NCBI GenBank assembly: GCA_021785435.1
Contig: JAJYFE010000002.1
Coordinates: 7,978 to 71,977 of the forward strand
Source: Planctomycetota bacterium
GTDB taxonomy: Bacteria; Planctomycetota; Phycisphaerae; WQYP01
DNA length: 64,000 nt
Direction of reading: 5' to 3'
Part shown: one piece after another, positions 16,721 to 39,300 of the stretch
How the letters are laid out: the number at the start of each line of letters is the position of its first letter
Position numbering within the stretch: position 1 is the stretch's first letter
Translations under genes and position numbers: made by a program
Notes under the pieces: generated by a model
The model's input: the letters and a program-made list of their open reading frames with translations, nothing else
What the model was told of the DNA's origin: nothing
Databases searched by the model: none

Positions 16721-17565
16721 TGCCGTGGCAAAACCACGCACGAAAGCTCACACGAAGCCGCGAAGAGCGCGAAGGACGAATTAGAGAACCCGGGGGCAAT
16801 AGTTGCAGCGAAGTGAACTCGGAAAGAGTTTTAAGGGACCATTAAAAAGGTGTTTTCGCGGCCTTCGCGGCGTAGTTTAGTCGCCAGGGCGACCGTGAGA
16901 TAAGGAATCATAAACACCGCGTCGAAGAGTCGCTACGGCGACCTTTAGCGCGGTGAACCGAACGAGAATGGAGCACCCGAAGGCCCCGCGGAAGAGGAAT
17001 GATGAGCCGCGGGTGACCCGAAACACCAGAACCACAGTTTACCCGCCGCGGCGGGGATCACACGGATGGCACGGATGACGTTGGTTTTCTCCCTCGATTC
17101 GTGCAACCAGGTAGTCTGTGGTGAAGGACGCTAAAAAGACGAACTCCAAGCACCGCGCTTCAGCGCGGTGAACCGATGTAGACAGGTTTTAGGTTATAGC
17201 GGTCAGGGAGCAGGGAACCGTAAGGGAAAAAGTAAAAGGAAAAAAACTGAAAACTGAACACCGAAAACTTCGTTAGTTCCGTCCCGGCGGATGTGGGTGT
17301 GCACCGGGTCGAGTGATCCGGGGCCGGCTTTTCGCGCGGCGTTTAAAAAGGGAGGTGCCTTATGGCACGGCAGGATTTACATCTTCGTGACGGTGGTTTG
17401 TTCGCGGAATTCCGGGCGGCGTTCGCCGGGAGCCGCAAGATTGGTCCCCTTTTTTCAAAGGAGTCTGTCATGTTTAGCCCACGGAAAACGGATCGCGGAG
17501 TCGCCAGGGCGACCAACTTAACCCTGGAAACTGGTAATACTGGCTCTCTTTTAAAGGAGATTACG
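16721..17565 (+). other. Purine-rich ~850-bp non-coding region (candidate long 5' leader or ncRNA) between the regulator and the DUF1559 gene
   Basis: No credible ORF. Repeated GCGCGGTGAACCGA motifs at ~16946 and ~17163. Hairpins CACCGCGC-ttca-GCGCGGTG, GTCGCCAGGGCGAC (16880 and 17500) and GTCGCTACGGCGAC. GC content is lower than in the flanks. Confidence 0.4.
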
Positions 17566-23607: not shown

Positions 23608-25614
23608 CTACCGTTTCTCGCCTCGTACCGCCACGGCGCCTTGCATCTGGCCGGTGGTACGTTCAGCACCGGTGAAGCCCAGAGTTTCGTCGAGCCATTG
23701 ATCGGCAAGGGTTACGCCGCGTCTCTGGCGGACGGCGCGATGACTGGCGAAAAATTGGGCCAAACGCAGAATCAGGCGGCCCGCCAAGTTTGGCAGTGGT
23801 TGGCGACGTCGCCACAGAACCCGCAGCAGACTCGAAAGTCGCGCTAACCGCAGGCGCATCAGATCATCTTCCAGAGAGGCAAAAATGATCGAACTGCCGG
23901 GGTCGCCTTGGCGACCGGCTCGACCGGCGAGTTGGCGGTCAATGCGCGGAGCTTCGTGGCATTCGGTGGCAATCACATGCAGGCCGCCGCGACGGCGGAC
24001 ATCGTCCGATAATTGGATGTCCGTTCCGCGACCGGCCATATTGGTGGCCACGGTGATGACAGCCGTTTGCCCGGCCTGAGCGACAATATGGGCTTCTTGC
24101 TCATGGTGCAGGGCGTCAAGCACCACATGCCCAAGCCCCAGGGCGGTTAAGCGCCGGCTTAGGTCGCCGCTGGCGCGGACACTGCGCGTACCAATCAGAA
24201 GCGGGCGGCCCTGGGCATGCACACGCTGAATCTCGGCCAGCACGGCCTGCGTGCGGGATTCACTGTCGGCGAAAAGATGGGTTCCCTCCCGCCGGCGGAT
24301 ACAAGGCCGGTGCGGACCGATGCGGACCAGGGGCAGGCCATAGGTGCGCATCAGCTCCGAGCGAACCTCGGCCATGGTGCCAGACATACCCGCCAGCTTG
24401 GGGTAGCCGCGGAAGAACTGCTGAAAGCTGATGCGGGCCATGGTGCTCCGCGGGCCTTGGACATCTACGCGTTCGCGAGCCTCGACCATCTGGTGCAGGC
24501 CGTCGCGCCACTGGCGATCCGGCATCAGCCGGCCGGTAAATTCATCGACGATGACCACTTTGCCTTCGCGCACCACATACTGGACATCCGGCAGGTAGAA
24601 ATGTTTCGCTTCCAGCGCACGGCCGATCAGTTCGGCGCTGCGCCGGTGGGAGCGCCACACGCCGGGCAGGTCGTGGCGGAGTTCATCAATGCGGTTGGGG
24701 CCGGAGCCGGTGATTTCGACGGTTTTATCCGCCGCCACCAACTGATAGTGGACGCCTAACCGCATCCGCTCCGCCAGACGGTTGGCCATATGGTAGGCTT
24801 CAAGTTGCTCGGAGTTGGGCTGATCGGTGGAAATAATCAGGGGCGTAACCGCTTCATCGATGAGGATGGAATCGGCCTCGTCGACGATGGCGAAATGTAA
24901 CTCCCGCTGCACCCGCCCCGTCGCTGCCGGGCCAAGGCCGGCATGGCCACGCCGGTTCCCCGCCGCCCGGGCGATCAAGCGGTCTCGCAAGAGATCGGCG
25001 CAAACTTCCTTGTTGGTGCAATAGGTGACATCCGCGGCATAAGCCTGCGCGCGGGCGACCGCATCCATTTCGGCGTGGATATAGGCGACCGAAATCCCGC
25101 AGAAATTGTAGAGTTCGGCAAACTGTGCGGCGTCACGCCTGGCCAGATAGTCGTTGACGGTCACCACGTGTACGCCCCGACCACGCCAGCCTTCCAGTAC
25201 GGCCGGCAATACGGCGGTGATCGATTTACCCTCGCCGGTGGCCATTTCGATAAACAGGCCGTCGGCCAGAGCCAGGCCGCCGGCAAACTGTTCCAAGTAG
25301 AGCGTCAGACCGATTTTCCGGCGAACGACCTCGCCGATCAGGGCCGTGGCCCGCACACGATCAGCGGTAGATTGGCGATTACGGCGAAAACGTACGGCTA
25401 AACTGACCAGTTCATCGCGCAGGGCGGCCTCCGAAATATCGCGCAACGCGGGCAGGAGGCATAGGGCTTGCTCCGCCAGACGAAGGTAGTAATTTCGGCG
25501 GGGCCTAAGCTCGCGCAGTTTGCAAGCGGCCGCGTACCACAAGGCATCCAGGCCGGTCGGCAACGGCTCCGCCGAAAATTCAGCAGCGCGTTTTCGCCGC
25601 TGGCCGCTCGACAT
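23608..25614 (-). CDS. SecA-family ATPase paralog (NBD1-PPXD-NBD2 with a truncated scaffold/wing region)
   Basis: Walker A EMATGEGKSI followed by VHVVTVNDYLARRDA. Walker B LHFAIVDEADSILIDEAVTPLIIS. PPXD-like YVVREGKVVIVDEFTGR. Motifs KLAGMSGT, TNMAGRGTDI and RIDRQLAGRAGRQGDPGSS. Only ~95 aa follow motif VI, against ~330 in E. coli SecA. GGAGG RBS 7 nt before the ATG at 25614. Confidence 0.8.
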   Translation of the reverse strand: MSSGQRRKRAAEFSAEPLPTGLDALWYAAACKLRELRPRRNYYLRLAEQALCLLPALRDISEAALRDELVSLAVRFRRNRQSTADRVRATALIGEVVRRKIGLTLYLEQFAGGLALADGLFIEMATGEGKSITAVLPAVLEGWRGRGVHVVTVNDYLARRDAAQFAELYNFCGISVAYIHAEMDAVARAQAYAADVTYCTNKEVCADLLRDRLIARAAGNRRGHAGLGPAATGRVQRELHFAIVDEADSILIDEAVTPLIISTDQPNSEQLEAYHMANRLAERMRLGVHYQLVAADKTVEITGSGPNRIDELRHDLPGVWRSHRRSAELIGRALEAKHFYLPDVQYVVREGKVVIVDEFTGRLMPDRQWRDGLHQMVEARERVDVQGPRSTMARISFQQFFRGYPKLAGMSGTMAEVRSELMRTYGLPLVRIGPHRPCIRRREGTHLFADSESRTQAVLAEIQRVHAQGRPLLIGTRSVRASGDLSRRLTALGLGHVVLDALHHEQEAHIVAQAGQTAVITVATNMAGRGTDIQLSDDVRRRGGLHVIATECHEAPRIDRQLAGRAGRQGDPGSSIIFASLEDDLMRLRLARLSSLLRVLWRRRQPLPNLAGRLILRLAQFFASHRAVRQRRGVTLADQWLDETLGFTGAERTTGQMQGAVAVRGEKR

Positions 25615-25683
25615 GGCGACGCCTCCACCGCTATTCGTCGGCTGGCAGGTTGGCGCAAGCGGCAATTTAGGCATGTGCGTCAT

Positions 25684-25830
25684 AGGCAGTGACCAGTGAC
25701 CAGCGAACCGTGACCAGAGATAAGGAACTCCTTAATGATGACCAATGGCCAGCGAGCAGTGACCAGTGACCGAAGATAAGGCATTCCTTTTTTCTGGTCT
25801 CTGCGTCACTGATCACTGGTCACTGGATCA
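25684..25830. repeat. Two tandem hairpin units of the TGACCAG-heptad / AGATAAGGAAYTCCTT element filling the gap between the M50 gene and the SecA paralog
   Basis: GTGACCAGTGACC arms at 25688-25703, matched by the reverse-complement arm GGTCACTGATCACTGGTCAC at 25808-25828. Cores AGATAAGGAACTCCTTA (25717) and AGATAAGGCATTCCTTTTTT (25777). Confidence 0.6.
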
Positions 25831-28009
25831 TGCGGGCGATCATATCCCACACCTGCACGGCCGCCGGCGCGGATTGCAAGGACAACCGTACCGACACCGT
25901 CTGGCCGGGCCGTAAACACGACAGGCACGGGGAGGTCGGCTGCAACTCCAGGACAAAAAAGGGATTCCGGGCGGCCTGGGGCGTTTTCGCGGCCGGGGCG
26001 ATGGCTCCGCCAGCCAGATAGCTTAGGGCGGCCGAAAACAGTTGGGTTTCCCCGCCGGGGTATTCATGCACGATACGGGCGGATATCAAATCACCCGGTT
26101 GGCCAAACGGCCGGATCTGAGCCTGCCGAGATCCCCCCTGAAAGATGCGGCCCGCTTGATCCTGGCTGACGGCGGCCAACACCAGCAGTTGGTTACAGTT
26201 GACGACTTCACCCAAAGGGTCTCCGCGATGAAAATACGCCCCTATCCGCCGATCTAGATCAGCCGCCACCCATTCACCCGCCACCGGCGCGCGCACCACC
26301 AAGTCCGCGATACGCCGCTTAACATCGGTCAACTCGTCGTTGATGGCGCGAATTTGCCGGGCATAAATTTGCGCTTCAGCCGGATCGTGGGCAATCGCCT
26401 GGAGCCTCTTCATGCGGGTCTGGTCCCACTGCGCCAATAGTTCGGCGCGTTGGGTCAAGAGGTCGGGATTGGTCAAACGCACGAGAACTGTTCCGTCCCG
26501 GCCGGCGGTGACCTCTCGGCCTGATGCGACAAAACGGTGCAGGAATCCATCCGCCTGCGCGTAGACATTCCGTTGCGGTTCACCCCGCACCACGGCCTCA
26601 GCACGGCAATGCTGGGGCAGGGGAATCATCCCCAAGCCGACAATCGCCGCCGCGGCGATTCCGCCGCTCCATAGCAAGGCCCGGGGCCGCCGCCCGTGCA
26701 GTTCCGGGCTGGTCAGCACGTACCAGACACAACGGCCCAGCGGCACGACCACCCAGGCGATGATGCCGGCGGCCGCCATCACCATCAGCAGCAGCATGGC
26801 CGCCGGATATTGGTTCAGCGCCCTGATCAGGAACAACAAGATGCCGACCGATACCAACACCCTCACGACAACCGCACCAACCATATACGCCACCAGCCAA
26901 GCCCGCTGGCCGGGGGCTTCGGTCGGATCCAGCGCCCGTGGCACACGGAAAAGATAGTGGCGGAACAGGAATGAGACATATTGCATGCATCGGCCCAATA
27001 GATTGGGAATCTGCAATAGATCACAGCAAATGTAGTAACCGTCATAACGCAGAAATGGATTGCCGTTGAAAAGCACCGTTGCGACCGAGCCAATGAGCAC
27101 CAGGTCGTAGCAGAGAATGTTCGCCGCACTGCCGGGACTGGTCAGCGTCCAGAGAATCGCCGCGGTCGCGGCAACGGCAAAATCCATCCACATGCCCGCC
27201 GCCCCCACCACGACCCGGCGCCAGCGGTTCTTAAACGCCCACGCGCTGGAGGCATCGACATACGGAATGGGGGTGAAAACCAGCAGCATCAGCCCCATGA
27301 TGTGCACTTCGCCCGTGCGGCCTTCGCGCCAGCCGAATTTCTTGCACGCCAGGGCGTGGGCGGATTCGTGGAGCGTTTTGTCGATTACAAAGGCCAGGTA
27401 CAGCAGCAGCCAGTTGCCGGGCTTGAGCACCGTGGCGATACTCTGGGCCGCGCTGGAGAGACTGCGGCCCGAAGTCAGCACCGCGTAGACGGCGGCGACG
27501 AACAGCGCCAGCCAGAGCAGCAGCCCCGGCCAGGAAAATATCCAACCGAATACTGGAGTCACGGCGTTCAGCACGGCATCCGGATCAAAAAGCGGAATGC
27601 GTGGGAAGAGTAGGTTCATCAGGTTACCTTGGAGTTCGCGTTTGCGACGCTGCCGGTAGCGCCGCATCATCGACGCGGCATCCGGCGGCAACTCGGATTC
27701 CAATAGATTGCTGGACGCCAGTTGGCCAAGCAGTTCCAACGCCTCGGGTTGGGAAGGGGCGTCGTCTTCCAGCCGAGCCAGGCAGATCTCCCAGCACTGG
27801 GCCACGGTCCGTCTCCCGTCCATGAGGCCGATGAACTCGTAGGCCGAGCGGTTCAGCCGGAAATGGGTGTTGTTGGCTTGATCCTGCACCACATACCAGC
27901 GTTTGCCGCGATACGTTTGGCGGACGATCGCCACGCCGCTGCGGATGCGTGGCTTTAAGCCCGCCACCAAGTGCCAGGATTCATGGAAAATGGATTCAAT
28001 GCGCGGCAT
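25820..28009 (-). CDS. Tri-domain fusion: PqqD-like peptide-binding domain + peptidase M50 (site-2 protease) membrane domain + HlyD-family periplasmic adaptor domain
   Basis: N-terminal HFRLNRSAYEFIGLMDGRRTVAQCWEICLARL matches the PqqD consensus (LNxtAxxIxxLxDGRRxVA). HESAH zinc motif inside a TM helix. NGNPFLRYDGY matches the M50 NxxPxxxLDG motif. The C-terminal 250 aa is a HlyD-type barrel-sandwich/beta-barrel domain (VVRAPVAGEWV). The ORF-track start at 28036 lies inside a heptad repeat, so the start was moved to the ATG at 28009. Confidence 0.65.
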   Translation of the reverse strand: MPRIESIFHESWHLVAGLKPRIRSGVAIVRQTYRGKRWYVVQDQANNTHFRLNRSAYEFIGLMDGRRTVAQCWEICLARLEDDAPSQPEALELLGQLASSNLLESELPPDAASMMRRYRQRRKRELQGNLMNLLFPRIPLFDPDAVLNAVTPVFGWIFSWPGLLLWLALFVAAVYAVLTSGRSLSSAAQSIATVLKPGNWLLLYLAFVIDKTLHESAHALACKKFGWREGRTGEVHIMGLMLLVFTPIPYVDASSAWAFKNRWRRVVVGAAGMWMDFAVAATAAILWTLTSPGSAANILCYDLVLIGSVATVLFNGNPFLRYDGYYICCDLLQIPNLLGRCMQYVSFLFRHYLFRVPRALDPTEAPGQRAWLVAYMVGAVVVRVLVSVGILLFLIRALNQYPAAMLLLMVMAAAGIIAWVVVPLGRCVWYVLTSPELHGRRPRALLWSGGIAAAAIVGLGMIPLPQHCRAEAVVRGEPQRNVYAQADGFLHRFVASGREVTAGRDGTVLVRLTNPDLLTQRAELLAQWDQTRMKRLQAIAHDPAEAQIYARQIRAINDELTDVKRRIADLVVRAPVAGEWVAADLDRRIGAYFHRGDPLGEVVNCNQLLVLAAVSQDQAGRIFQGGSRQAQIRPFGQPGDLISARIVHEYPGGETQLFSAALSYLAGGAIAPAAKTPQAARNPFFVLELQPTSPCLSCLRPGQTVSVRLSLQSAPAAVQVWDMIARMIQ

Positions 28010-28040
28010 TTTCGGTGACCAGTGACCAGTGGCCAATGAT
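28010..28040. repeat. TGACCAG heptad repeat (left flank of the four-helix-bundle cassette)
   Basis: GGTGACCAGTGACCAGTGGCC. Confidence 0.55.
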
Positions 28041-28046
28041 ATGGAA

Positions 28047-28505
28047 TTACCCAGATTTCAGGCGGAGTGTGCGGATCGTGGCAAAAAGAATCCGCGCGAT
28101 TTCATCCGCAGCGTCGAGCAGTTGCTGCGCCGTCTGATGGTCCAAGTAATCTATATCCCGCATCCAGCTGATCCAGTACTTCGACTCCTGACATTCCTTG
28201 TATGCAATTGACGCCTGGTGCGACAGTTCCATGCCAGAAATGGCGGCGCCCGCCTCCGCCAGATTTGCGCCGATGGAGGTCCCGCTTCTGAGCAGCTGTC
28301 TGGACAATACGAAGTCGCGCTTTCGCCGGCGCGCGTCTTCGCAAGTCTTCACCACACGGAGCGCAAAGCCATAAGCCTTCACATACGCGGGACCCCCGGC
28401 GGCAGCGCCATCATTCTTGGGGTATCGCACTGCCGGCCCCGTCGTGCAACTGCCCTCTGCCACGTTATCGGTCACGGTGTTCCCTTTCCTCTGGTCACTG
28501 GTCAC
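28047..28505 (-). CDS. Four-helix-bundle protein (23S rRNA intervening-sequence protein family)
   Basis: LSRQLLRSGTSIGANLAEAG and KECQESKYWISWMRDIDYLD are signatures of this family. 152 aa. Confidence 0.8.
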   Translation of the reverse strand: MTSDQRKGNTVTDNVAEGSCTTGPAVRYPKNDGAAAGGPAYVKAYGFALRVVKTCEDARRRKRDFVLSRQLLRSGTSIGANLAEAGAAISGMELSHQASIAYKECQESKYWISWMRDIDYLDHQTAQQLLDAADEIARILFATIRTLRLKSG

Positions 28506-28532
28506 TGGTCACTGGTTACTGGTCACTGACTT
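28487..28532. repeat. Five tandem copies of heptad CTGGTCA (one variant CTGGTTA); right flank of the four-helix-bundle cassette, overlapping the stop codon of the TolC-family gene
   Basis: CTGGTCACTGGTCACTGGTCACTGGTTACTGGTCACTGAC. Inverted relative to the 28010-28040 copy. Confidence 0.65.
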
Positions 28533-30414
28533 TCACGCCGCTGAAACGCAGTAGCGTGCCTTTGGCCTGCTGAAACTTCACCAGGTCCACATCGTAACGG
28601 GCAATGGCGGCCTGCTCGGCTTGACTGGCCGCCGCGAGGTTTTGCGCCGCATCCAACTCCAGCTGCAAGAACGTGGGGGTCAGACTTTGGCCCGATTGTT
28701 CCTGCACGCGCAGGCCCGTCACCACGCGCTGGGCGGCCGCGCGCCGCCGTCGAGCCGCCCGCAATTGCTGCCAGTCTTCCGCCAGATTCCACAGGCTGAT
28801 TACAATGTCGCGCGTGACATTCTGGGCATCACGCAGCAGACGAGTAAGCGCCCCTTGGCGCTGGTAGCGACGACGCTCCAGCTCGGCTTTTGCGGCCCGG
28901 TTGCCCAGCGGCACTTCCAATTTCAAACCCACTTCGTACCCAATATGCGGATCATTGAGCATGCGATTGTCCGCGCCGGCGAAACTGCCGTTCGGGGCCA
29001 ACCCCATGGAACTCGTCGAGGCCACCAAGTCCAGCTTGGGTAAAAGGCCGTTTTCCGCAACCTGCACATCGATTCCAGCGCGGGCCATCGCGGCGCGATC
29101 GTGCGCCAATTCCGGCCGATTGTGCAAAGCCGTGGCAATGTCGTCGCGCAAATCGAACAGGATGGGCACCGCTAACAGCGGTGTGGACGGTACCATCCGC
29201 ACCGTGGAAGCCACCGGAATCGAAGGCGTGTTTATCTGGGCCTTAAGCCGCTGCGAGTAATCATGGGCGTCGCGCAGCGTGCCGGCCAGTGTGAAACGCG
29301 CCTGGGCCAGCGCCGAATTCGCCTGGCTGATCTGCACGGCATCGACATCCATGCCTTGACGCGCCAGCAACCGCGATCGGATCTGCTGGAGCGAGGCGAT
29401 CAACCGCTGTTCGATGCGGATGTCGGCCGTCGCATTGGCCAATGAAAAATAGGTTTCCTCCAACTGGGCGAGGATCTTGATCACGCCGGCGCGAAAGTCC
29501 GCCAGGGCGATCCGCCGGTTGGTCCGGGCGATGCGTATCTTGGCCGAAGTGACCGTGGGACCAAAACCCCGTAACAACGGTTGGGAGAGGCCCAGCGTCA
29601 GGGCATTGCTGTAGGAAGGATTAATGTCCGGCGGCAAGCTGGAAGAGGAATGGACATCCAAATAGTTGGATGTTCCTTGCAGATACATGGTGCCGCCAGT
29701 GGGCAGCAAACCCCGCAATCCGATGTCGTTATTGAACGTGTCCTGATTGTTGTAACCGATGGGTCCTACTCCGCCGATAGTGGACGGGTATGGGGTTGGC
29801 TGATTCTGCTTCTGCCAGTCGCTTTCGCCAAAAAAGATCGGGTCGAATGCCGCCTCGGCTTGGATCAGTTCGGACTGGGCGATTCGAGGCGAAAACGATT
29901 CGAGCTTGATGGATAAATTATGCCCGAGGGCATCGTCCATCGCCTTGGCCAGTGAAATGGGAACCCTGCCGCCAGGGGGCAGCGTGGCGATGGTGGGTTG
30001 GGTTGACGCCGTGGTTGTGGTTGGGCCGGGGGTGGGCTGTGACGATGGCCCCACTTGGGTACCGGGCGCGGGGAGTTCCTGTATGCCATGGTCGGCCAGT
30101 ATCGCCTCTTTTCCTAAAACCAGGCCGTAATTATTACGGATGTTATGCGCCACCGCAGCAGCCGCATAAGCCTGCCATTCGGCGCCATGGGGACCTTGCT
30201 CGAACACTGAGGCACAGCCGGCCAAGGCAAACAGCGCGGCTACCAGTGCCGTCAAGGCACACGCGCCCCAGCCGGAGCGCTGTAGCCGGCAGCTGACACG
30301 AAGCAACGAAGACTTAACGGATTTTTGGGGTGCGGGGCGCGGTGGAACCGGCAACCGAAAGAATTCGCGGATTACGCGGAGGGCGGGGATTTTGGGTAGG
30401 AACGAAATGAACAA
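28516..30414 (-). CDS. TolC/NodT-family outer-membrane factor lipoprotein
   Basis: Signal peptide and lipobox ALFALAGC. Two OEP-type repeat halves with long coiled-coil segments. Thr/Pro-rich linker. The start is probably non-ATG and lies upstream of the signal peptide. Confidence 0.75.
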   Translation of the reverse strand: MFISFLPKIPALRVIREFFRLPVPPRPAPQKSVKSSLLRVSCRLQRSGWGACALTALVAALFALAGCASVFEQGPHGAEWQAYAAAAVAHNIRNNYGLVLGKEAILADHGIQELPAPGTQVGPSSQPTPGPTTTTASTQPTIATLPPGGRVPISLAKAMDDALGHNLSIKLESFSPRIAQSELIQAEAAFDPIFFGESDWQKQNQPTPYPSTIGGVGPIGYNNQDTFNNDIGLRGLLPTGGTMYLQGTSNYLDVHSSSSLPPDINPSYSNALTLGLSQPLLRGFGPTVTSAKIRIARTNRRIALADFRAGVIKILAQLEETYFSLANATADIRIEQRLIASLQQIRSRLLARQGMDVDAVQISQANSALAQARFTLAGTLRDAHDYSQRLKAQINTPSIPVASTVRMVPSTPLLAVPILFDLRDDIATALHNRPELAHDRAAMARAGIDVQVAENGLLPKLDLVASTSSMGLAPNGSFAGADNRMLNDPHIGYEVGLKLEVPLGNRAAKAELERRRYQRQGALTRLLRDAQNVTRDIVISLWNLAEDWQQLRAARRRRAAAQRVVTGLRVQEQSGQSLTPTFLQLELDAAQNLAAASQAEQAAIARYDVDLVKFQQAKGTLLRFSGVKVSDQ

Positions 30415-30489
30415 CTGGGTTACTCTCCGTTTGCGTTAATGATACTCTGACACCCCTGGCGCGTTGTCAAACGATAGATTTCGGGTCGG

Positions 30490-30605
30490 AGAAAGAGCCC
30501 CAGACTCCCCACCGAACCCGAAGCACCCGCCTTTAGGCGGGTGAACGGATTCCGGACGCGATACCCGAAAGCTAAGTGGTGACAAAGCACTAAAGCCTTG
30601 GCCGG
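30490..30605. repeat. Family-2 dispersed element (intra-operon copy)
   Basis: GAAAGAGCCCC...GAACCCGAAGCACCCGCCTTTAGGCGGGTGAACGG...CCCGAAAGCTAAGTGGTGACAAAGCAC. Confidence 0.5.
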
Positions 30606-30653
30606 ACATCCCTCCCCCACGCCATCGCCACGGCGATGGCGTGGGGGATCGCG

Positions 30654-32120
30654 CTACACCCATAACTTCATCCGCAGCCAGTCGATAAGGCGGCGCGTCC
30701 AAATCCAGATGTAATGGCCTTTCCCCGCGTCGATGCGGGCCGTGCCCTGCATCCCCGGATGAAACCAGGTCGGGGGGCGAATCAACCGCGCCCATACATC
30801 GAACACATTCTTCTTATGCCTCACCTGGGCCGCCGGATCGACCCGGGAAACGACCAAACGCACCTTGATGCCCGGATTGGAGGCCGGCGCCAGGGAGCCA
30901 CTTTCGCCCGCGTGGATATAAAGAATGTCCGCATCCGCCACGCGGATGCGCGCCACCAACGGTTTCAGCGGCGCCACCGTAAAAAGCACCTGACCCTTGC
31001 GCACCGGCGAACCGATTTTCCGCTCCAGCCGACCCGTCAGGACCTCGCCGGAAAGGGCCGACCGGATATCCGCATGGCGGATTTCCCGTTTGAGCAGACG
31101 AATCCGAGCCGCGGCGGCGTTGGCCCCATCCGCCGCGATCTGGGCGTCGGCGAACTTGCCCCGACTTTGGGCGATCTGCTCTTGTTTAAGATAGGTTGAC
31201 CGTTTCGCCTCGGCCGTGGCCAATTGGTCGCGCAAACTGGCTGTATCCAGGGTCGCCAATGTGGTCTGTTTAGCCGTGATCTCATCGCCAGGCAAAACGT
31301 CAACTGTCCGCAGATAGCCGTCGAATGGAGCGATCACCTGGGCCTGCCGAGTTGGTTCCAGCCGAAAGGGCGCCCGAATTCGAAATGTCCCGACGCCAAA
31401 AATCGCCCATCCCAGCAACCCAGCAATCGCCACCGCCGCCGCTTTCACCCACGTGTGCTTTGGCCCCACCGCCAGCGCCAAGCCACGCCGCAGCGATTCA
31501 GCCAGTTTTACGCCAATCCACCGCTCGTGCCGCCAGGCGTCCGCGATCCGCGGCGTCAACAAATCCGCCAGCCGGCGCATCGTTTCAAGTTCGGTCTGAT
31601 CCGGTGTGCGCGGCGCGGCGAACTCGAAAAGCAACGCCCCCCCAAGCTCGCCGTGCCGCAGCGGAAGCACGAGCACCGAACGATGCTCATCGCTTTGGCT
31701 TAACTTCTCGGCGCAACGGTACAGAAATTTAGAATCCGGTGGCGCTGGGACCAGGACTTCGCAATCCTGATCCAGGCATTCCTCCATCGCCTCCTCAATC
31801 AGGATCACTGCCTGCATCTTGCGCAGGATTTTTTCCGTGTGGCTCATTGCCACGACGTGGACTTGGCGGCCTTTCAGTATCCCCAGCGTCACCCGCGCGG
31901 CGGCGAAATCCGCGGCGAGCTGGTTGCAAACCGCCATCGCCAGGGCCATGAAGTGCTTGAAGTCCTGCGCCAGGGCCGCCAGAGAGCCTAGCGTCTTTTC
32001 GTGTAGTTCCGCCCGCCGTTGCTGCTCTTGCGCCGCCTGGACCTGCTGCTGCGTATGCTCCCACGCCGCCTGCGGCACCATCACATAGGGGGACTCGGTC
32101 ACACTCTGCGGCTGACTCAT
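30654..32120 (-). CDS. GAF-like N-terminal cytoplasmic domain + TM helix + HlyD-family membrane fusion (periplasmic adaptor) protein
   Basis: GAF-like block ending VLVLPLRHGELGGALLFEF. TM WVKAAAVAIAGLLGWAIFGV. Lipoyl-like QVIAPFDGYLRTVDVLPGDEI. Coiled coil. Beta-barrel GMQGTARIDAG. Confidence 0.6.
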   Translation of the reverse strand: MSQPQSVTESPYVMVPQAAWEHTQQQVQAAQEQQRRAELHEKTLGSLAALAQDFKHFMALAMAVCNQLAADFAAARVTLGILKGRQVHVVAMSHTEKILRKMQAVILIEEAMEECLDQDCEVLVPAPPDSKFLYRCAEKLSQSDEHRSVLVLPLRHGELGGALLFEFAAPRTPDQTELETMRRLADLLTPRIADAWRHERWIGVKLAESLRRGLALAVGPKHTWVKAAAVAIAGLLGWAIFGVGTFRIRAPFRLEPTRQAQVIAPFDGYLRTVDVLPGDEITAKQTTLATLDTASLRDQLATAEAKRSTYLKQEQIAQSRGKFADAQIAADGANAAAARIRLLKREIRHADIRSALSGEVLTGRLERKIGSPVRKGQVLFTVAPLKPLVARIRVADADILYIHAGESGSLAPASNPGIKVRLVVSRVDPAAQVRHKKNVFDVWARLIRPPTWFHPGMQGTARIDAGKGHYIWIWTRRLIDWLRMKLWV

Positions 32121-32140
32121 AATCGCTCACGCTTCAGGGG

Positions 32141-32195
32141 CCAGTGACGCAGTGGCCAGAGACCCTAAATAAGGAACTCCTTTGCTCTGGTCACG
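32141..32195. repeat. Degenerate heptad/AAATAAGGAACTCCTTT hairpin element that fills the 70-bp gap between the two adaptor genes
   Basis: CCAGTGACGCAGTGGCCAGAGACCCTAAATAAGGAACTCCTTTGCTCTGGTCACGGGTCA, with CCAGAG/CTCTGG stem arms. Confidence 0.55.
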
Positions 32196-33120
32196 GGTCA
32201 TTGAAATTCACCGTTACTTCCTGGCCCGCGGGGAGATGGCGCGGATTCGGCACGCGCAATTCCACCTGCACCGTCGCACTCGAGGGATCCGCTACCTCGG
32301 CGATCCACCGCACCGTACCGGTAAGCCGCCCGCCTGAGGCGAGCGTAACGGTACCCGTCTGTCCAACCCGCAACCGCCGTGCGGCGTCCAGCGCTACGGT
32401 CGCCATCACCCGCAAAGGATCGACCTGCACCAACTGGATCACTTTTTGCGCTGGCTGCACCGGCATTCCGATCCGGCCGCGCCGATCGTCGATGACTCCA
32501 TCGAAGGGCGCTAAAATTTCACGATCTATCAGCGCCTGCCGGGCTTGCCCCAGCGCCAACTGATCCGCCTGATGCTTGAGCCGGGCCAGCTGCAACGACA
32601 GTTGATCCATAATCACTTTCAGCTTCGCCTGCTGCAGTTCAAAATTCGTGACCGCATGTTTGCGGTAACCAAATTCCTTTTCCGCCAGAACCACTTGGTC
32701 GTACGCGAGTTGGGCCTTGCCGGCGGCAACTTGCAGCGTGCTCTTGGCCTTAAGCGCCGCCGCCCGGACCGCGAAGTCTTCGCGCTCATGATGTTCCGCG
32801 GCGAGCAATTCGCCGCGCTTAACCGCCGCTCCGCGCTGCACGCGAACCTCGCCAATCACGCCGCCCTGCGCGAAGCCCAGCCACACATTCCGCCAGGCGC
32901 GGGCTACCCCGGGAAAGCCCGCCGCATTGTCGGATGGACGGGTGGCTTGAGCGCTGTTCGCAGTAAACAGAAATATCAGCAACACCAGCGCTGCCGTATG
33001 GTTTAAGAATAAAGCGGTTTTCCCTATATATTCTTTCGCTTGCATTGTGGCCTTTGCTTTGTGACCAAGCCAGGAAACTGTGGCGCTTAGGTAGCCAGCA
33101 ACACCCCCGGCAAAAGCCAT
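32191..33120 (-). CDS. HlyD/RND-adaptor family periplasmic membrane fusion protein
   Basis: N-terminal TM anchor, coiled-coil hairpin, lipoyl motif EILAPFDGVIDD and a beta-barrel domain. An alternative start is the ATG at 33045 (MQAKEY). Confidence 0.6.
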   Translation of the reverse strand: MAFAGGVAGYLSATVSWLGHKAKATMQAKEYIGKTALFLNHTAALVLLIFLFTANSAQATRPSDNAAGFPGVARAWRNVWLGFAQGGVIGEVRVQRGAAVKRGELLAAEHHEREDFAVRAAALKAKSTLQVAAGKAQLAYDQVVLAEKEFGYRKHAVTNFELQQAKLKVIMDQLSLQLARLKHQADQLALGQARQALIDREILAPFDGVIDDRRGRIGMPVQPAQKVIQLVQVDPLRVMATVALDAARRLRVGQTGTVTLASGGRLTGTVRWIAEVADPSSATVQVELRVPNPRHLPAGQEVTVNFNDP

Positions 33121-33388
33121 CGGCGTTCAGCTTTCCGCATGCGATATTCAACAACAATCAGCCATTGGCAAGCCAACCGGCGGTTTATTCCGACCAGCGG
33201 AATCACTGTTCGTCGGCGCCAATGCAGGCGGCACGCCTGCGCTACAGCAGACCCGGAGGTCTGCGCCACAAGGCCTGGCAGGCTGGAAAGGTCTCCTGGG
33301 GCGACTCTCCGACGTGCCCCACAAGCAACTGCCCACCGCCGCCGAGCCACGGGGCGAAATCCCGATGCCGATCTGGAACGGGAATCAC

Positions 33389-36300
33389 TTATTTCAGCGC
33401 GATCGCCACGCCGGCCATGACGCTTTGGGCCATCTGGTGTTCCTGGCCAACCTGGGCTTCATAATTGAGGAACAACGTCATATTCTTCGCCAAGTTGCCG
33501 CTGACGCCCGCCCCTAACAACGCCGAGTCTCGTTCCGGTGCGGGCGTGCTGATGGCAAACGGCACGCCGCCGGGGAAGAACGCATTGATCGCCCGACTGC
33601 CATTTAAATATTCATGCTGCCAAAAGGCGTTGCCGGTGAAATTCACCGCCGGGGCGGTTGGCCGCAGGCGCCAGGCGTAAGCGAGCTGGGCGCCGAGCAA
33701 GGACCGTAAGGAATCAACGGACATCGGTGCTATCGTCAGGTCCTGCGCCGGGGCGCCGGTTTCCGTATAACCGGAAACATTCAAGTGCGTGTAACCCAGG
33801 CCCACCGCGGGACCGGCCTTAAAGCCACGGAAGAAATGGAAGTTGTAGCCGGCCAGGGCGTCTAAATCGAACTGGTGGCCATAGGGACTGCTGCTGGCCG
33901 TGGCCGCGGTGACATTGCGGTGCAACCGGTAATCGTTGTACGTATAGCTGGCCAGGCCGTTCAGATAAAAATGGCTCTTCCGCACGCCAAAATAAACGCC
34001 TGGCGAATAGGCGTTGTCGCGCAGGGCGCTGCCGATATTGTCCAGCTTCGCGCCGGTATAGTTGTACGCGAACATCGCCCCGACCACCAAATGGGAGGCC
34101 AGGTTGTAATCCACGCCTGCAATCACCCCGCCGGTGGTGTAATGGGCCACTTCGCCGGTATCGGCGACGATGATATCGCCGGTGACAAAGCCGGAGAGGG
34201 TATTCTTCCGCGATTCACTGCTCGGGACCGGCACCGCCCCGCCTCCAGCCGCTACGCCGGGATTGAAGACATCCAGATCCCGCACAGAATCCCGCGCCTG
34301 CTGGCTGGTGGATTTCATCGCCGCGTTAAGCGCGGTGGTGAATGGATCCGCATCGGGCGTGTGCAGCAGGCTAAGGCCGGAGGCGTTAAAGCCGGTGACG
34401 CCATTAAAAATGTCGCCGATTTCCTGGAAGATCGTTTCACTGGTGAAGATGCCGGTTTCCACGCTCGTATTGCCCATATCCGCCGCCGCCTCTTCCGTCA
34501 GCTCCGGCTTGATGGGCAGAACCTCGATGGTATCCGTAGTGCTGGTGGCGGTCTGGGTAAGGGTGTATAGCGGATCGGTGCTCCTGGCGTTCGCGAACGG
34601 GCCGGTGACGCTGGCAGCGGTGACCACGGTGTACTTGTCCAGGGCGGCCGGGCTGTAGCCGTGGTTGAACTGCACCAACAGGTTGCCATTCGGCAAATTG
34701 GCTGTCCCAGCCACATTCAGCGTGTCGTAGCTGCCCGTGTCCGTCGATGGTCCGGCGATGGCCAGAACCAGGGTGGAATTAGCGCCCATGGTGTAATTGC
34801 CACCGACGTTAATGGCTATGCCGGTGCTGTTATTGATGTTGGCCGGAACGGCGTTGATGCTGGCCAGCACCGCCCCGCTGTTCAGGATGACATCGCCGGT
34901 TCCCAATGCCGAGGAATTGCCCACATCAATGGCGGCGCCGCTGTCAATGGTCGTGCCGCCGACGTAGCTGTTGGCATTGGGTAGGATCAGTTCGCCGCCG
35001 GGGCGGCTGGAGGCAACCGTCAACCCCCCGCCGCCGGTGATGGCGCCGGAATAGGTTTCCGCGGCAACGCCGCCGAAGCCGTTGGCATCGATGGTTCCGC
35101 TGCTACTGAGCGTCAGGTTGTTGGCGACGTTCAAACTCGCGGCGCCAAACTGAATCGTTCCACCCCCATCCCCCTTGATGGTGACGCCGCCGCTGCCGAG
35201 AGAGCTGGACTGGCCCACTTGGACCACGCTGGCATTGGTAAGAGTCGTGCCGCCCGAGTAAGTGTTGGCGCTGGAAAGAGCCAGGGTGCCGCCACCAGAT
35301 AGGATTAGGCTGCCGCCCGTACCGCTGCCGATGCCGCCATCTTGAACCACGCCGGCAAAGGTATTGGCGCCGCTGGAGATATTGATCGTCAAGGCCTTGC
35401 CGCCCAAGGCCACGGTTCCGCCCGCGCCCGTTAGGCCAAGAATAGTCGCACCGCTGGTGGTTTGCGAAATGTCAAACGCGGCCCCGCCGCTTAACGCCAC
35501 ACCGCTGGAATCGGCAATGCTCCCGGCGCCGGAAAGGGCCAGCGTGCCGGAAGCGACGCTGGTGGCGCCGGTGTAGGTCTCGGTCACGGAAAAGGTCAGC
35601 GTGGTATCCGCTGCGCCATTTTCGGCTACGCCGCCGCTGCCGGAGATTGCACCCGAAAGGCCGCTGCTGGCGGCCTGCGCGAAAATCAACGCTGTATTAT
35701 CAGTCACATTGCCGGTCAGCTCGGCGGTGCTGGCCGTGAATTCCAGCGTGCCGCCGGAGATGGTGGTCGTGCCGGTATAGGTATTCGCGCCAGAGAGGAT
35801 CAGCGTGCCGTTACCGCCAAGCACCAGGCTGCCGCCGGCGCCACTGCCGATACCGCCATCTTGAATCGCGCCGCCAAAGGTGTCGGAGCCGCTGGCGATA
35901 TTGATCGTCAAGGCTTTACCGCCCAAAGCGACGGTTCCCCCCGTGCCGGTCAGGCCAGGAATGGTTGCACCGCTGGTGGTTTGGGAAATATCCAACGTGC
36001 CGCCGCTGCTTAGCGCTACGCTGGAATCAGCGATGCTGCCGCCACTGCCCAGCGCCAGCGTGCCGGCGCTGATGGTGGTCGTCCCCGTGTAGGTGTTGGC
36101 ACCCGTGAGCGTTAGCGTGCCGGCGCCGGAAAGGGTCAGGCCGCCGCCCGTACCGCTGCCGATGCCGCCGTCCTGGATGACGCCGCCAAAGGTATTGGCG
36201 CCGCTGGCGACGTTCACCGTCAGGGTTTCGCCACCCAACGCCACCGTGCCACCCGGTCCGGTCAGGCCAAGTATGGTTGCACCTGTGGTAACTTGCGAAA

Positions 36301-39300
36301 TATCAAACGTCGCGCCGCTGCTCAAAACCACACCGCTGGAATCGGCCACGCCGCCGGCCCCGGAAAGCGCCAGCGTGCCGGCGCTGAGGGTGGTCGCGCC
36401 GGTGTAAGTGTTAGCGCCGGAAAGCGTTTCGGCGCCGGAATTGAGCACCACGCCGCCGTTGCCGCTGGCGCCGTTCTGGATGATACCGGAGAAGGTGCCG
36501 CTGGCGTCGGTTAGCGTCAAATTCTTCGCCCCCAGCGTGACGGTACCACCGCCCGCTAGCGAGGTGATCGACGTACCGGCGGCATTGATCCGTGAGATAT
36601 CAAACGTGGCCCCGCCGCCAACCGTCACCCCGCTGGAATCAGCGATGCTGCCATCCGTACTGGTGCCGCTGTTGTAGGCGAGCGCCAGCGTGCCGGAATT
36701 GACGGCGGTGGCGCCGGTATACGTGTTGACGCCCTCAAGCGTCAGCGTATCCGGCCCGGCGACGGTCAACACGCTGCCGCCAATGATGGGGGCGCTGATC
36801 GTGGCGCTGGCGTTCATGGTGACCGCGCCGTTGAGAACCAGGCTGCCTCCCCCGCTGGCGGCAATGGTATAGGAACCGCCTGTCCCCATCGCGTTAAATG
36901 TAATTCCCGCCGCGGTGACACCGGCCTGGTCAATCGTCACCGTGACCGCGCTGGTCCCGCCCGCGCCGAAGGAAGCGATATCACCGTTCGCCCACACTTG
37001 AGCCGTTCCGCCGGTCTGCGCTGTGCTCCACAGCGTGTTTCCGCTGCTGGTGTCCCAGTTGCCGTTGTTATCCGCCTGCGCTGTTCCGCCCACCGTGCCG
37101 GTCCAATAGAGCGTCGGCGTACTGACGAGCGAAATAACCTCGCCGGTGTCGGCCACATAGGCGGCCGTATAAGAAAGGGATCCCGCGTTGGTAAGATGCA
37201 CGGCGCTGAAATTACCGGTGACCGGGCCGGTCGTCCCAATCACGGTATAATTTTGGCCCGCCTGCGGGTTGGCGCCGCTGGCGAAGATCAAGTCCAGCGT
37301 GCCGGCCAATGAGGCCGCCCCGCTGCCGAGTCGAAGGGAATCGTAGCTGGTGCTGCTGCCCACCAGCAGGGCCAGCGTGGAATCAGCTTGCTGAGTGTAG
37401 CTGGCGGCGTTGACGGCCAGCGTCGTGCCCGATCCCGCCTGCGCGCCGGTGGTTTCAAGCGTTGTCCCGGAATTGACAGTTAAGGCCCCCGTTCCGAACG
37501 CGCTATCGCTGCCCGCGACCAACTTTCCATTGCTGACAACCGTTCCCCCGGTGTAAGTGTTGGTTCCAGAAAGCGTCAGTGTCGTGGCGGTCGTACCAGC
37601 ATCCAGGACCACGCGGCCGCCGCCGGAGATGACGTGTGAAAAACTGGTGTTGCCGGCTGGCGGCTCGGCGCTTGGGGCGAAGATCAGGGCGGAATTATCC
37701 ACGATGCCGCCGCCTAACTGCGACGTGTCGCCCTCCAATCGCAGCGTGGCGCCGTTGCCGATGGTGGTGGTGCCGCTGTAGGTGTTGGCGCCGGAAAGGA
37801 TCAGTTCGCCGCCGCCGTCGTTGGAGGTGACGGTCAAGGCGCCGCCACTGGTTTTGTCAGCGATCACACCGGAGAGCGTAAAGACCGTGCCCGTGCCGAC
37901 ATTGATCGTGTTGGTAACGCCCGTCCCGTTGAAAAGATACCAGTTGTTGGCGAGGCTGGAACCGCTGCCGCTGTTATTGTCGCCGAAGTCAATGGTTCCG
38001 TTGTCCAGGTAAAACAGGACGTTGCTTGTCGGCTGCCCGCCGCCGCTGCCGACCTGGAATGTCGTCGGCGTGCTCGCCCCGCCGCCGATTTGCAGCGTAC
38101 CGGCGGTCACGCCCGTGAAGTTAGCGCCATTGTCGACAAAAGTGCCGTCCGTCAATACCAGAATATTGCCGGCGCCGCTGCTGGTGACCGATCCGCTCAG
38201 GGTGAGCGTCTGGCCACCGGCGTCAATGAAGTTGTTGGCGCCGGATATGGTAATGTTATTGGGGACACCCAGCCCGATTCCCGTTTCATTTACAAATGTT
38301 CCATCATCCAGCGCGATGGTGGCGCCGGCGCCGATAAAGCCATTAGCCTTCGGCCCGGCCGTAAATGTCGCCGCGGTGGCCAGCGTGCCGTTACCGGTCT
38401 GAATTGTCCCCGCGGTAAAGCCGGTAAAACTGCCATTATCGACAAATCCGCCGTCCTGCAGGATCAACGTGTTTCCCGCCGCGGCGCTGCTGACCGTACC
38501 GGTCCAGGTGATGGTGGTGCCGAAGCCGCCGGCGTCGATGGTATTGGTGGTCGAGCCGGTGACGGTGATAGCGGTGTTCGATGAGAAGCTCGTGCCGCTC
38601 GCATTGACCACTGTGGCGCCTGCGAGCGTCAGCGGACCGGTTCCAAGGTCGGGTCCGGACGTTGTCTCCAAGTCAACTGTTACGCCGCCTTCCAACGTGG
38701 TGCCGCCGCTGTAAGTGTTGGCGTCGCTTCCCAAGGTGAGCGTATGGGCCCCGGTGATGGTCACCGCGCCGCTGCCGGAGATCGCGTGCGAAAAACTGGT
38801 GTTGGCCGTTAGTTCAAAAATCAGGGCGGAATTATCCACGATGCCGCCGCCTAACTGCGAGATGTCACCTTCCAGCTCCAGTGTCGCGCCGGCCTCAATC
38901 GTGGTCGTGCCGGCGTAGGTGTTCGCCGCCGGATTGCCGCCGCTCTGGGGGTTCAAAATCAAGGTGCCTCCGGCGGTGCTGGAGGCGACCGTCAGGCCGC
39001 CACCGCCGGAAATAACGCCGTCGAGTTCCTGCGAGCTTTCGTTGCCCACGTCGATGGTGTTGGTGACGCCCGTGCCGGAAAGGAGGGTCCAGGGATTGCT
39101 CCTCGGGCTCCCGGCGCCGCCGCTGCCGCCGGCGAAGGACAACGTGCCGTTGTCGAGTTGAAAGATCACGGCACTTTTGGGCTGACCGTTTGCGACGTTG
39201 TTGCCGCCGACCTGCAAAGTTGCCGGCGTGTCGGCCCCACCGCCAATTTGCATCGTGCCAGCAGTGACGCCGCCGAAATCGGCGCCGCTAAGCACAAAGT

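Follow-up and report, generated by a model that had tools for sequence, protein, structure and literature searches.

The stretch of DNA analysed here (the window, 64 kb) contains an export operon read on the minus strand, in which a giant gene is followed by HlyD309, HlyD488, TolC, an M50-HlyD fusion and a SecA-like gene. The nearest relatives of the genes flanking the features described below are from Planctomycetota/Phycisphaerae. The window contains 23 occurrences of the heptad TGACCAG (5.2 expected), a number reached by none of 100 shuffles, and 12 of the 23 fall inside three short elements, which we call A, B and C. TRF detected period-7 arrays at 25687-25717, 25739-25771, 25806-25830, 28015-28039 and 28491-28528, so the heptad arrays described in the initial annotation are real and far above chance. 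They had been placed at every intercistronic junction of the operon. Actually, only three of the five junctions are occupied, while those from the giant gene to HlyD309 (33120-33389) and from HlyD488 to TolC (30415-30653) are free of heptads. The arm heptads contain the stop codons of the three upstream genes (25820, 28516 and 32191). A profile of the element ends found no further copy in the 64 kb, indicating that the copies are locally clustered, in agreement with the concentration suggested before. A related motif proposed at 16895 has neither heptads nor a palindromic half, and was also missed by this profile.

Element B (28012-28529, minus strand, 518 nt) is a full cassette in which two 28-nt arms, 86% complementary and separated by 462 nt, surround a gene of the PF05635 family. 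The 5' arm in mRNA sense (28502-28529, with heptads over 28491-28528) includes the TolC stop codon at 28516-28518, confirming an overlap already noticed, and the 3' arm (28012-28039) is followed at 3 nt by the start codon of M50-HlyD (28009). The segments 28010-28040 and 28487-28532 had been taken as separate hairpin units; they are instead the two inverted arms of this single element, and the gene cassette between them had been overlooked. Element A (25684-25830, no strand assigned), delimited by inverted repeat, TRF arrays, core matches and RNA fold, is an ORF-less composite hairpin made up of direct heptads (25687-25717), a first core (25718-25733), more direct heptads (25739-25773), a second core (25774-25789) and inverted heptads (25795-25826). 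It represents the entire spacer between M50-HlyD, with the stop codon (25820-25822) in the arm, and the SecA-like gene, starting at 25683. Within A, arm and core are tandemly duplicated. Element C (32137-32204, no strand assigned), identified by core match, end alignment and fold, is an ORF-less degenerate hairpin with one core (32167-32182), located between HlyD309, whose stop codon (32191-32193) falls within the arm, and HlyD488, starting at 32120. The cores of A and C are the sole matches to the 16-mer core in the window.

The gene enclosed in B (28047-28475, minus strand) codes for a 142-aa 23S rRNA intervening-sequence protein (IVP or S23p, an Avd-like four-helix bundle), and is annotated with this length in GCA_027429555.1. 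The protein matched PF05635 (E 1.4e-22), TIGR02436 (E 4.3e-25, 88 bits for a cut-off of 24) and, with the family profile, the structure PDB 2RLD (E 1.8e-37). The gene starts with GTG and ends with TAA, and both this stop and an SD-like AGGAAAGGGAAC sit in the inner ends of the inverted repeat. Compared with the related strain L091 the constraint is relaxed (2 synonymous and 6 nonsynonymous changes) and in L083 the ORF is frameshifted; judging from these changes, the IVP ORF seems to be decaying in this lineage.

The eight inward-reading ends of A, B and C all fit one architecture when aligned, (CAGTGAC)n-AGATAAGGAA, where CAGTGAC is the TGACCAG heptad and AGATAAGGAA is a non-repetitive inner end common to the three elements. 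They also have irregular units in common, among them CAGTGACGCAG, present in element C and in the right end of A. The core palindrome 'AAGGAAYTCCTT' of the ORF-less A and C is explained as two inner ends abutted. The inner palindrome AAGGA..TCCTT that had been attributed to every copy does exist in A (two cores) and C (one core), but not at 28010-28040 or 28487-28532. Like in MITEs, the terminal inverted repeats (TIRs) of A and C are common to a longer element of the same genome, since their ends align with those of B. No target-site duplication was recognized, the flanks having only non-boundary 4-mers in common, and no empty-site comparison was found for any of the three. None of the elements contains a transposase, the sole cargo being the 142-aa four-helix bundle, a protein without known catalytic domain.

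Regarding structure, the minus (mRNA) strand of A has a folding energy of -73.7 kcal/mol (z -8.2), compared with -62.4 for the plus strand. In B, the arms pair in a long-range stem in both the MFE and the centroid structure of a 541-nt transcript (z -4.6). For C we obtained -31.9 (plus strand) and -24.0 kcal/mol (minus strand), with a z of -1.6 on the mRNA strand. The long mRNA hairpins predicted in the initial annotation are thus supported for A and B and weak for C. Stable GC-containing hairpins after stop codons could act as intrinsic terminators or attenuators between sub-operons, but none of the three is followed by a U-tract on the mRNA strand, all were missed by a terminator scan whose total of terminator-like structures was not above shuffles, and the downstream start codons come within 3-20 nt. 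We consider this explanation very improbable.

The comparison with orthologous export operons that had been suggested was carried out, and the elements are absent there. Over 20 kb in each of L092, L094 and L095 we found no period-7 arrays, and the junctions were 11-60 nt long or overlapped by 4 nt. The junction occupied here by A is 11-60 nt in the orthologues, and the two HlyD genes that flank C overlap by 4 nt in L094. Such tight, heptad-free junctions demonstrate that A, B and C are lineage-specific insertions. Of the options considered initially, footprints of an integrating element is supported. In the related strains L091 and L083, B occupies the corresponding site, with 3/3.5 heptads in the former and 3/6 in the latter, so that at 97% and 93% identity the site is kept and the heptad numbers differ. 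Both B arms of L083 have a matching variant heptad, CGACCAG. Heptad copy number has therefore changed between strains, as expected from slippage.

We have examined 78 PF05635 loci from many phyla, scored against control positions. Lag-7 periodicity was above the 95th percentile of controls in the upstream flank of 64 loci and in the downstream flank of 70, and arm complementarity exceeded the 99th percentile of control positions in 59. Overall, about 80-90% of the PF05635 genes are flanked by inverted period-7 arrays. Stems were present in 71 out of 79 PF05635 loci, their median length being 27 nt. A co-directional ORF ends in the 5' arm in 33 of 61 loci (4% of control windows), and the cassette is fully intercistronic in 24 of the 61. 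The heptad varies by lineage (GGGTGTA, AAGGGAA, AATTACG and others), and the same architecture appears in unrelated operons with polysaccharide or plasmid partition genes, as well as in distant plasmid-borne members of Calothrix, Nostoc punctiforme and Geminocystis. The family is large (about 15,000 clusters at 50% identity). One copy (P0059) had an identical context in 24 contigs, and viral contigs yielded no close relatives. The heptad arrays also add spurious residues to gene calls.

These data bear on the possibility that the arrays are plain STRR-type simple-sequence repeats, produced in place by replication slippage, with no mobile element involved and PF05635 as an unrelated neighbor. 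The change in heptad number between strains fits this explanation, and heptamers are over-represented among bacterial SSRs (PMC4692102). Besides, we found more than 120 metagenome stretches with (TGACCAG)3, mostly lacking an IVP and with unrelated loops; the IVP gene was present in 3 of 80 metagenomic (TGACCAG)n arrays. Heptad arrays can accordingly occur without the cassette, and perhaps also originate without it. Against it, the inner end AGATAAGGAA and the irregular units that A, B and C have in common imply the copying of a composite element, and the arrays are always paired and inverted. The link between gene and arms in most loci, made with lineage-specific heptads, is also far from the 10% of other intergenic gaps of the same loci in which comparable arrays were detected. 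Slippage as the whole explanation is unlikely.

The initial annotation had also considered the repeats a plausible device specific to this operon, setting the expression of the giant genes versus the export machinery. Dedicated hairpins of this kind, processing or stabilizing the mRNA so as to balance giant adhesin-like genes and export proteins, would account for the exact placement at cistron borders, the strong folds on the mRNA strand and the higher stability of A on the minus strand. Transcript stabilization or translation coupling has been proposed for the STRR hairpins of cyanobacterial hupS/hupL (PMC2670836). But the orthologous operons and two of the five junctions do without the elements, one of the copies is a gene cassette, and the architecture is repeated in unrelated operons of other phyla. 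The RNA-level wobble signature is absent too: over 71 loci, arm mismatches on the sense strand showed no bias of G.U over A.C (51 vs 64, p 0.26), so that arm complementarity looks like a DNA-level inverted repeat and not like a selected RNA structure. We find a purpose-built regulator improbable, and the hairpins of this operon are probably passengers.

Another alternative is that the arms are REP-like binding sites for a protein or, as a variant, that the heptad stems are bound by the Avd-like pentamer encoded between them. In its favor, a CAGT-type motif is conserved at regular 7-nt spacing with a preferred polarity, the CAGT-type array preceding the gene and the ACTG-type following it (44:8 upstream and 57:5 downstream), and a structured RNA element is bound by Avd, a pentamer with positive charge. 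Still, the heptads diverge widely among lineages, the IVP ORF appears to decay in this one, and a RAYT-like gene is absent from the neighboring genes examined. This makes binding sites a decidedly unlikely explanation.

Several known systems resemble parts of what we describe. The 23S IVSs of Leptospira and Coxiella burnetii have a PF05635 ORF enclosed by a terminal stem of about 28 bp, strain-variable tandem heptamers at the 5' end, a decaying ORF and a sporadic, lineage-specific distribution (PMC4990558). In Coxiella the IVS contains an S23p ORF, its 28-bp terminal stem is cut by RNase III and its GACAGAT heptads vary in number between strains (PMC4990558). Element B has both the terminal stem of 20 bp or more (28-nt arms, 86%, in MFE and centroid) and the enclosed PF05635/TIGR02436 ORF, the latter missing in A and C. 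It differs in being located in an intercistronic spacer of an export operon and not in helix 25 or 45 of the 23S rRNA (the only Rfam match in the window is a tRNA and the flanks are protein-coding), and in being accompanied by ORF-less copies. Cyanobacterial STRRs (e.g., STRR2, TTGGTCA) likewise consist of tandem 7-nt units that fold into hairpins between operon genes, as in hupS-hupL (PMC2670836). Period-7 arrays in spacers were detected here by TRF, the heptad is enriched (23 vs 5.2 expected), and in our survey such arrays flank the PF05635 genes of cyanobacterial loci and plasmids. We take TGACCAG to be identical at 6 of 7 positions to the reverse complement of STRR2. The arrays described here differ in that they come in pairs, one of which encloses a gene, and have a defined inner end that is not repetitive; their unit is TGACCAG in a context of Planctomycetota/Phycisphaerae relatives and not one of the canonical STRR1-3 of a heterocyst-forming cyanobacterium. 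We found no link between STRRs and PF05635 in the literature.

Xanthomonas genomes, a genus that contributes a PF05635 member (PDB 2GSC), contain about 185 intergenic arrays of the heptamer GGGAATC each, 70-75 convergent inverted pairs among them, with lengths varying between species (PMC4692102). Intergenic location, inverted pairing and variable length are all shared with our elements, but those arrays are G-rich, have been studied as quadruplex formers and no cargo gene was reported there. For A and C the best functional analogue is the Correia (CREE) or enterobacterial ERIC type, short ORF-less inverted-repeat MITE insertions co-transcribed with their neighbors. In Neisseria the TIR hairpins of Correia elements in operon mRNAs are bound and cleaved by RNase III, altering expression (PMC2649163, PMC10969869). 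Correia elements differ in having unique 26-bp TIRs, TA duplication and IHF sites in place of tandem heptads, and no ORF-bearing partner. The Avd of DGRs has a homologous fold, a pentameric, positively charged, RNA-binding four-helix-bundle barrel, but Avd genes have not been described as heptad-flanked, and the cassette lies next to TolC and the M50-HlyD fusion, no RT or TR/VR being present among the genes examined. An integron cassette with attC does not fit either, as tandem-heptad arms are found on both sides of the ORF and the region has no integrase or cassette array.

We favor, with a probability of about two in three, that A, B and C are copies of one palindromic IVS-like insertion, with TIRs of tandem heptads followed by the inner end, a tolerated selfish element having side effects on expression through RNase III and coupling. 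B would be the full form, with the PF05635 gene in the loop, the left inner end serving as SD and the stop in the right one, and A and C would be ORF-less derivatives. The distribution of the element suggests that it is mobile. Against our reading count the weak mRNA hairpin of C, the missing wobble bias, the constant context of P0059 in 24 contigs, the lack of a transposase or target-site duplication, the lack of close relatives on viral contigs and the many metagenomic arrays with no IVP gene. When co-transcribed, the arms would pair into dsRNA of at least 20 bp at the borders between cistrons and, being made of tandem repeats, could do so in several registers even with unequal copy numbers in the two arms. 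RNase III cutting is established for the IVSs of Coxiella, Leptospira and Salmonella. Here it would divide the polycistronic mRNA and set the IVP message free, while uncut stems could mask the start codons, which come 3-20 nt after the 3' arm. Translational coupling might result if ribosomes that reach the stop codon in the 5' arm and terminate there melt the base of the stem. RNase III processing, structure-dependent coupling or both are the most likely consequences of these long stems, incidental to the insertion and not the work of a purpose-built regulator.

To our knowledge, the origin and role of the rRNA IVSs and their conserved ORF have been a standing question since the early 1990s, and we know of no accepted function for cyanobacterial STRRs. 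This locus and the survey across phyla show that the 'IVS protein' gene is almost always within a hairpin of inverted 7-nt repeats, that the usual site of the cassette is precisely between co-directional genes, and that ORF-less copies bearing the same ends are present beside it. We place these elements among selfish hairpin elements of a class that is widespread but has barely been described. Heptad arrays can be mistaken for other repeat classes; '23S rRNA IVP' appears among the CRISPR-array-associated domains in PMC10910872, and our guess is that mis-called arrays are behind this listing. A more ambitious and rather unlikely reading is that PF05635 genes are the cargo of a distinct, unrecognized class of palindromic mobile elements with register-tolerant heptad ends, in which the Avd-like pentamer, acting on the heptad hairpin of its element (as RNA or ssDNA), would serve propagation or processing, perhaps by bringing in a polymerase, reverse transcriptase or RNase of the host. 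The 23S IVSs, STRR arrays and Xanthomonas pairs would then be a single system. For the host, the effect at the mRNA level is probably the fragmentation of operon transcripts. Taken together, the locus and the survey join disconnected observations into one testable object.

In the window the heptad TGACCAG was counted 23 times (5.2 expected from shuffled sequences, none of which reached this number), and 12 of the copies lie in three short stretches. Tandem Repeats Finder detected period-7 arrays at 25687-25717, 25739-25771, 25806-25830, 28015-28039 and 28491-28528. The 16-mer AGATAAGGAAYTCCTT, which matches both strands because it is palindromic, was found at 25718, 25774 and 32167 only (up to three mismatches over the window). 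Therefore, the heptads and the core described in the initial annotation exist and are not a product of chance. They form three elements, here called A, B and C, which were the only copies retrieved from the 64 kb by a profile of their ends (heptads plus AGATAAGGAA). The motif GAGATAAGGAA at 16895, that had been considered a relative, was undetected by this profile and has neither heptads nor a palindromic half. Its location is a 640-nt intergenic region (16720-17362) with direct repeats of GCGCGGTGAACCGA around 16950 and 17162. The same region has a short array, (AAAACTG)x4, at 17243-17269, ahead of a gene whose start is at 17362. Two more repeats were seen in the window, a perfect tandem one at 56645-56687 (17 nt x 2.5, GGCTTCAGCCCGGTGAC) and one of 312 nt x 2.1 at 35743-36412, within the gene of a 2288-aa PATR protein.

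The export operon is encoded on the minus strand and contains, downstream of giant genes for PATR-repeat proteins, two HlyD genes (HlyD309, 32191-33120, and HlyD488, 30654-32120), a TolC/OEP gene (28516-30414), a small ORF (28047-28475/28505), a PqqD-M50-HlyD fusion (25820-28009) and a SecA-like ATPase (23608-25683). The small ORF belongs to PF05635, the "23S rRNA intervening sequence protein" (E 1.4e-22), and also scores 88 bits, over a cut-off of 24, against TIGR02436, "four helix bundle protein", and its family profile matches PDB 2RLD (E 1.8e-37). The heptad repeats at 28010-28040 and 28487-28532, initially listed as separate copies, are instead the two arms of a single inverted repeat, element B, that encloses this ORF (28012-28039 and 28502-28529; 28 nt, 86% complementary and 462 nt apart). 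Elements A (25684-25830) and C (about 32137-32204) contain no ORF. On the mRNA strand each unit had been expected to form a long hairpin, and the predicted folds agree for A and B only. A folds as a single long hairpin (-73.7 kcal/mol with z -8.2, and -62.4 on the opposite strand) and the arms of B are paired in the MFE as well as in the centroid structure of a 541-nt sense transcript (-229 kcal/mol, z -4.6), while C folds weakly on the mRNA strand (-24, z -1.6; -31.9 on the plus strand).

When aligned reading inwards, all eight ends of the three elements fit one architecture, (CAGTGAC)n-CAG-AGATAAGGAAYTCC, in which a non-repetitive inner end follows the heptads. The left inner end of B, AGGAAAGGGAAC, lies 3 nt ahead of the GTG start and looks like a ribosome-binding site, and the stop codon of the ORF sits within the right one (GGAATTA, read inwards). 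The right inner end of the same element in a close relative (L083) is AGATACGGAATTA, nearer to the consensus. In A and C the inner ends abut, giving the palindrome AAGGAAC-TCCTT, and in A the arm plus core is duplicated. An irregular 8-nt unit, CAGTGACGCAG, is common to the right end of A and the left end of C, which speaks for the copying of a composite element and against slippage at each site by itself.

Each element fills one junction completely: A that between the M50-HlyD fusion and the SecA-like gene, B that between TolC and the fusion, and C that between HlyD309 and HlyD488. At all three, an arm heptad supplies the stop codon (TGA or TAA) of the upstream gene, and the start codon of the following gene is found 3-20 nt beyond the other arm. 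The junctions between the giant gene and HlyD309 (33120-33389) and between HlyD488 and TolC (30415-30653, also free of heptads) have no element, and therefore the initial claim that every junction of the module is occupied was wrong. None of the three hairpins qualified as an intrinsic terminator in a terminator scan, and Rfam gave no known RNA family at A, B or C. The 240-nt HlyD488-TolC spacer is unique and strongly structured (-112.9 kcal/mol, z -4). A perfect hairpin of 16/17 bp (30613-30648) immediately follows the stop codon of HlyD488, a site resembling a terminator is located at 30524-30497, and the spacer could be a sub-operon boundary.

We have compared the operon with three orthologous loci (L092, L094 and L095). 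The window itself matches the MAG GCA_027429555.1 at 99.98% identity, and the closest orthologs of the M50-HlyD fusion are planctomycete-like and about 50-53% identical. The spacer between the fusion and the SecA-like gene is 60, 11 and 33 nt long in L092, L094 and L095; in the window it has 136 nt and consists entirely of element A. In L094 the two HlyD genes share a 4-nt overlap, against a 70-nt spacer containing C in the window. The gene of the intervening-sequence protein (IVP), as we call the PF05635 product, was absent from the three loci, and a lag-7 scan of 20 kb per locus was negative for heptad arrays. The elements are thus insertions relative to the orthologous operons, in agreement with the integrating element that had been among the initial suggestions. 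The fusion and the truncated SecA-like ATPase form a gene pair (23608-28009) conserved in the three loci, with HlyD-HlyD-TolC genes and giant PATR-repeat proteins as neighbors. The fusion (PqqD, M50 with HExxH, HlyD) is weakly similar to the daptide HExxH protease, and the pair looks like an uncharacterized planctomycete export or maturation module. The gene order around it varies among relatives, and B is located exactly at the lineage-specific TolC-M50 junction.

Element B is kept at the same site in two close relatives, L091 (96.9% identity) and L083 (93.5%). The numbers of heptads in the upstream and downstream arms were 5 and 3 in the window, 3 and 3.5 in L091, and 3 and 6 in L083, where the ORF carries a frameshifting 13-nt deletion. 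The ORF of B in the window differs from its L091 counterpart by 2 synonymous and 6 nonsynonymous changes, against 20 and 6 in the adjoining M50 gene. Thus, the arms are dynamic and the constraint on the cargo is relaxed, as has likewise been reported for the S23p gene of Coxiella. A variant heptad, CGACCAG, appears at matching positions of both L083 arms (830-860 and 1285-1335; 23 nt perfectly complementary) and is absent from the window and L091, which indicates a double change or copying from arm to arm. We found no transposase for the elements, and the search for target-site duplications around them gave only short shared 4-mers away from the boundaries. Recent mobility was sought in identical IVP proteins placed in differing contexts and was discarded, one such copy (P0059) keeping a single location throughout 24 contigs. 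Viral contigs contained no relatives by the patterns used.

We have examined the PF05635 family, which has 15,482 clusters at 50% identity (E <=0.001), in 80 loci with relatives, one genome per species, from Phycisphaerales, Cyanobacteria, Bacteroidota, Acidobacteriota, Desulfobacterota, Chloroflexota, Calditrichota and others. Taking 120-nt flanks of the 78 testable loci, lag-7 periodicity exceeded the 95th percentile of 404 control positions upstream in 64 and downstream in 70, and reverse complementarity between flanks was above the 99th control percentile in 59. A stem was present in 71 of 79 loci (median 27 nt), and comparable arrays were found in just 10% of the other intergenic gaps of the same loci. 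The heptads vary by lineage (CAGTTAT/ATAACTG, CATTTAT/ATAAATG, AATTACG/CGTAATT, GGATAAT/ATTATCC, CAGTCAC/GTGACTG and others), and the termini of several homologues are translated heptads, e.g., WSLVTGHWSLVTGH and MTNDQ. Among 61 evaluable loci, the 5' arm contained the stop codon of a co-directional ORF of at least 100 aa in 33 (4% in control windows), a co-directional ORF started within 40 nt past the 3' arm in 34, and both were found in 24. That 5' arms serve generally as stop signals in all three frames could be rejected, since over 66 loci these arms had 1.58 stop-bearing frames vs. 1.44 in shuffled sequences and 2.02 in the 3' arms. The layout recurs in more distant members. Heptad arms flank the copies on plasmids of Calothrix (GGGTGTA/TACACCC), Nostoc punctiforme (pNPUN02, TCAGGAG/CTCCTGA) and Geminocystis (AAGGGAA/TTCCCTT), though not one in Pseudanabaena, and TGACCAG arms enclose a distant PF05635 gene of a metagenome locus (L149). 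Two of the genomes with IVP cassettes contain several heptad families within a few kb (AGAAGTT, AGAACCT, GGTTACA and GATCACG in L003; AACCTGT, CAATGAT and GCTTCTA in L085). In the second one (GCA_027436295.1, 2500-3600 of L085), a polysaccharide operon that includes an IVP cassette with (CAATGAT)n arms also has a small PDDEXK_3 (PF13366) gene with a complete hairpin on each side (...CAGAT-type repeats, apex TAAATAAGGCAAAAATAA). Related hairpins may serve other small cargo genes.

The converse rule, that a heptad array implies an IVP gene, does not hold. (TGACCAG)3 was found in more than 120 metagenome stretches and only 3 of the 80 fetched had an IVP gene nearby. About 25 of the 80 were short ORF-less hairpins with unrelated loops, which rules out the AAGGAAYTCCTT core as a general trait of TGACCAG hairpins; this core is specific to the present lineage. 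No true 23S rRNA intervening sequence (IVS) appeared among the fetched loci. A single one (L146), from a metagenome contig, touches an rRNA operon, at whose end (TGACCAG)3 lies at 2002-2022, about 160 nt downstream of the 5S gene.

The anatomy of B is like that of the Coxiella IVS, which has 428 nt, an S23p ORF with signs of decay, a 28-bp terminal stem cleaved by RNase III and tandem GACAGAT heptamers in strain-dependent number at the 5' end (PMC4990558); B, however, is located in an mRNA operon. Cyanobacterial STRR heptamers form hairpins in spacers such as hupS-hupL, with proposed roles in translational coupling or transcript stabilization (PMC2670836), Xanthomonas has about 185 GGGAATC arrays, 70-75 as convergent pairs (PMC4692102), and Correia elements are MITE hairpins within operon mRNAs bound and cleaved by RNase III (PMC2649163, PMC10969869). 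A homologue of PF05635, the accessory protein Avd of DGRs, forms a positively charged pentamer and binds structured RNA. In the open-access literature we did not find a general link between PF05635 and inverted heptad arrays, the Coxiella description alone touching both, and elements of this kind go unmentioned in a MITE review of 2024. The "23S rRNA IVP" is named among CRISPR-array-associated domains in a figure legend of a large clustering study (PMC10910872); our guess is that flanking heptad arrays may be taken for repeat arrays.

The anatomy of the elements, their status as insertions, the changing heptad numbers and the membership in the PF05635 class are direct results, and what follows on their effect is inferred. 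In the operon transcript the arms would form stems of at least 20 bp that, being built of tandem repeats, could pair in more than one register even when the arms differ in length. RNase III might cut them, segmenting the mRNA at three cistron borders and freeing the IVP message. Uncut stems would hide the downstream start codons, and a ribosome ending the upstream gene, with its stop in the 5' arm, could melt the stem base and couple translation. Selection on the stem at the RNA level was not supported, the sense-strand arm mismatches being G.U in 51 cases vs. A.C in 64. With no excess of G.U, the complementarity is therefore best read as a terminal inverted repeat at the DNA level. As a whole, the initial observation was confirmed in part and its interpretation found partial support. 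B is best seen as a heptad-armed cassette of the IVS type, and A and C as two ORF-less derivatives, all of them inserted where cistrons of a planctomycete export operon meet. Their functional weight for this operon is probably minor, and the part worth following is the association of PF05635 genes with heptad arms across phyla.
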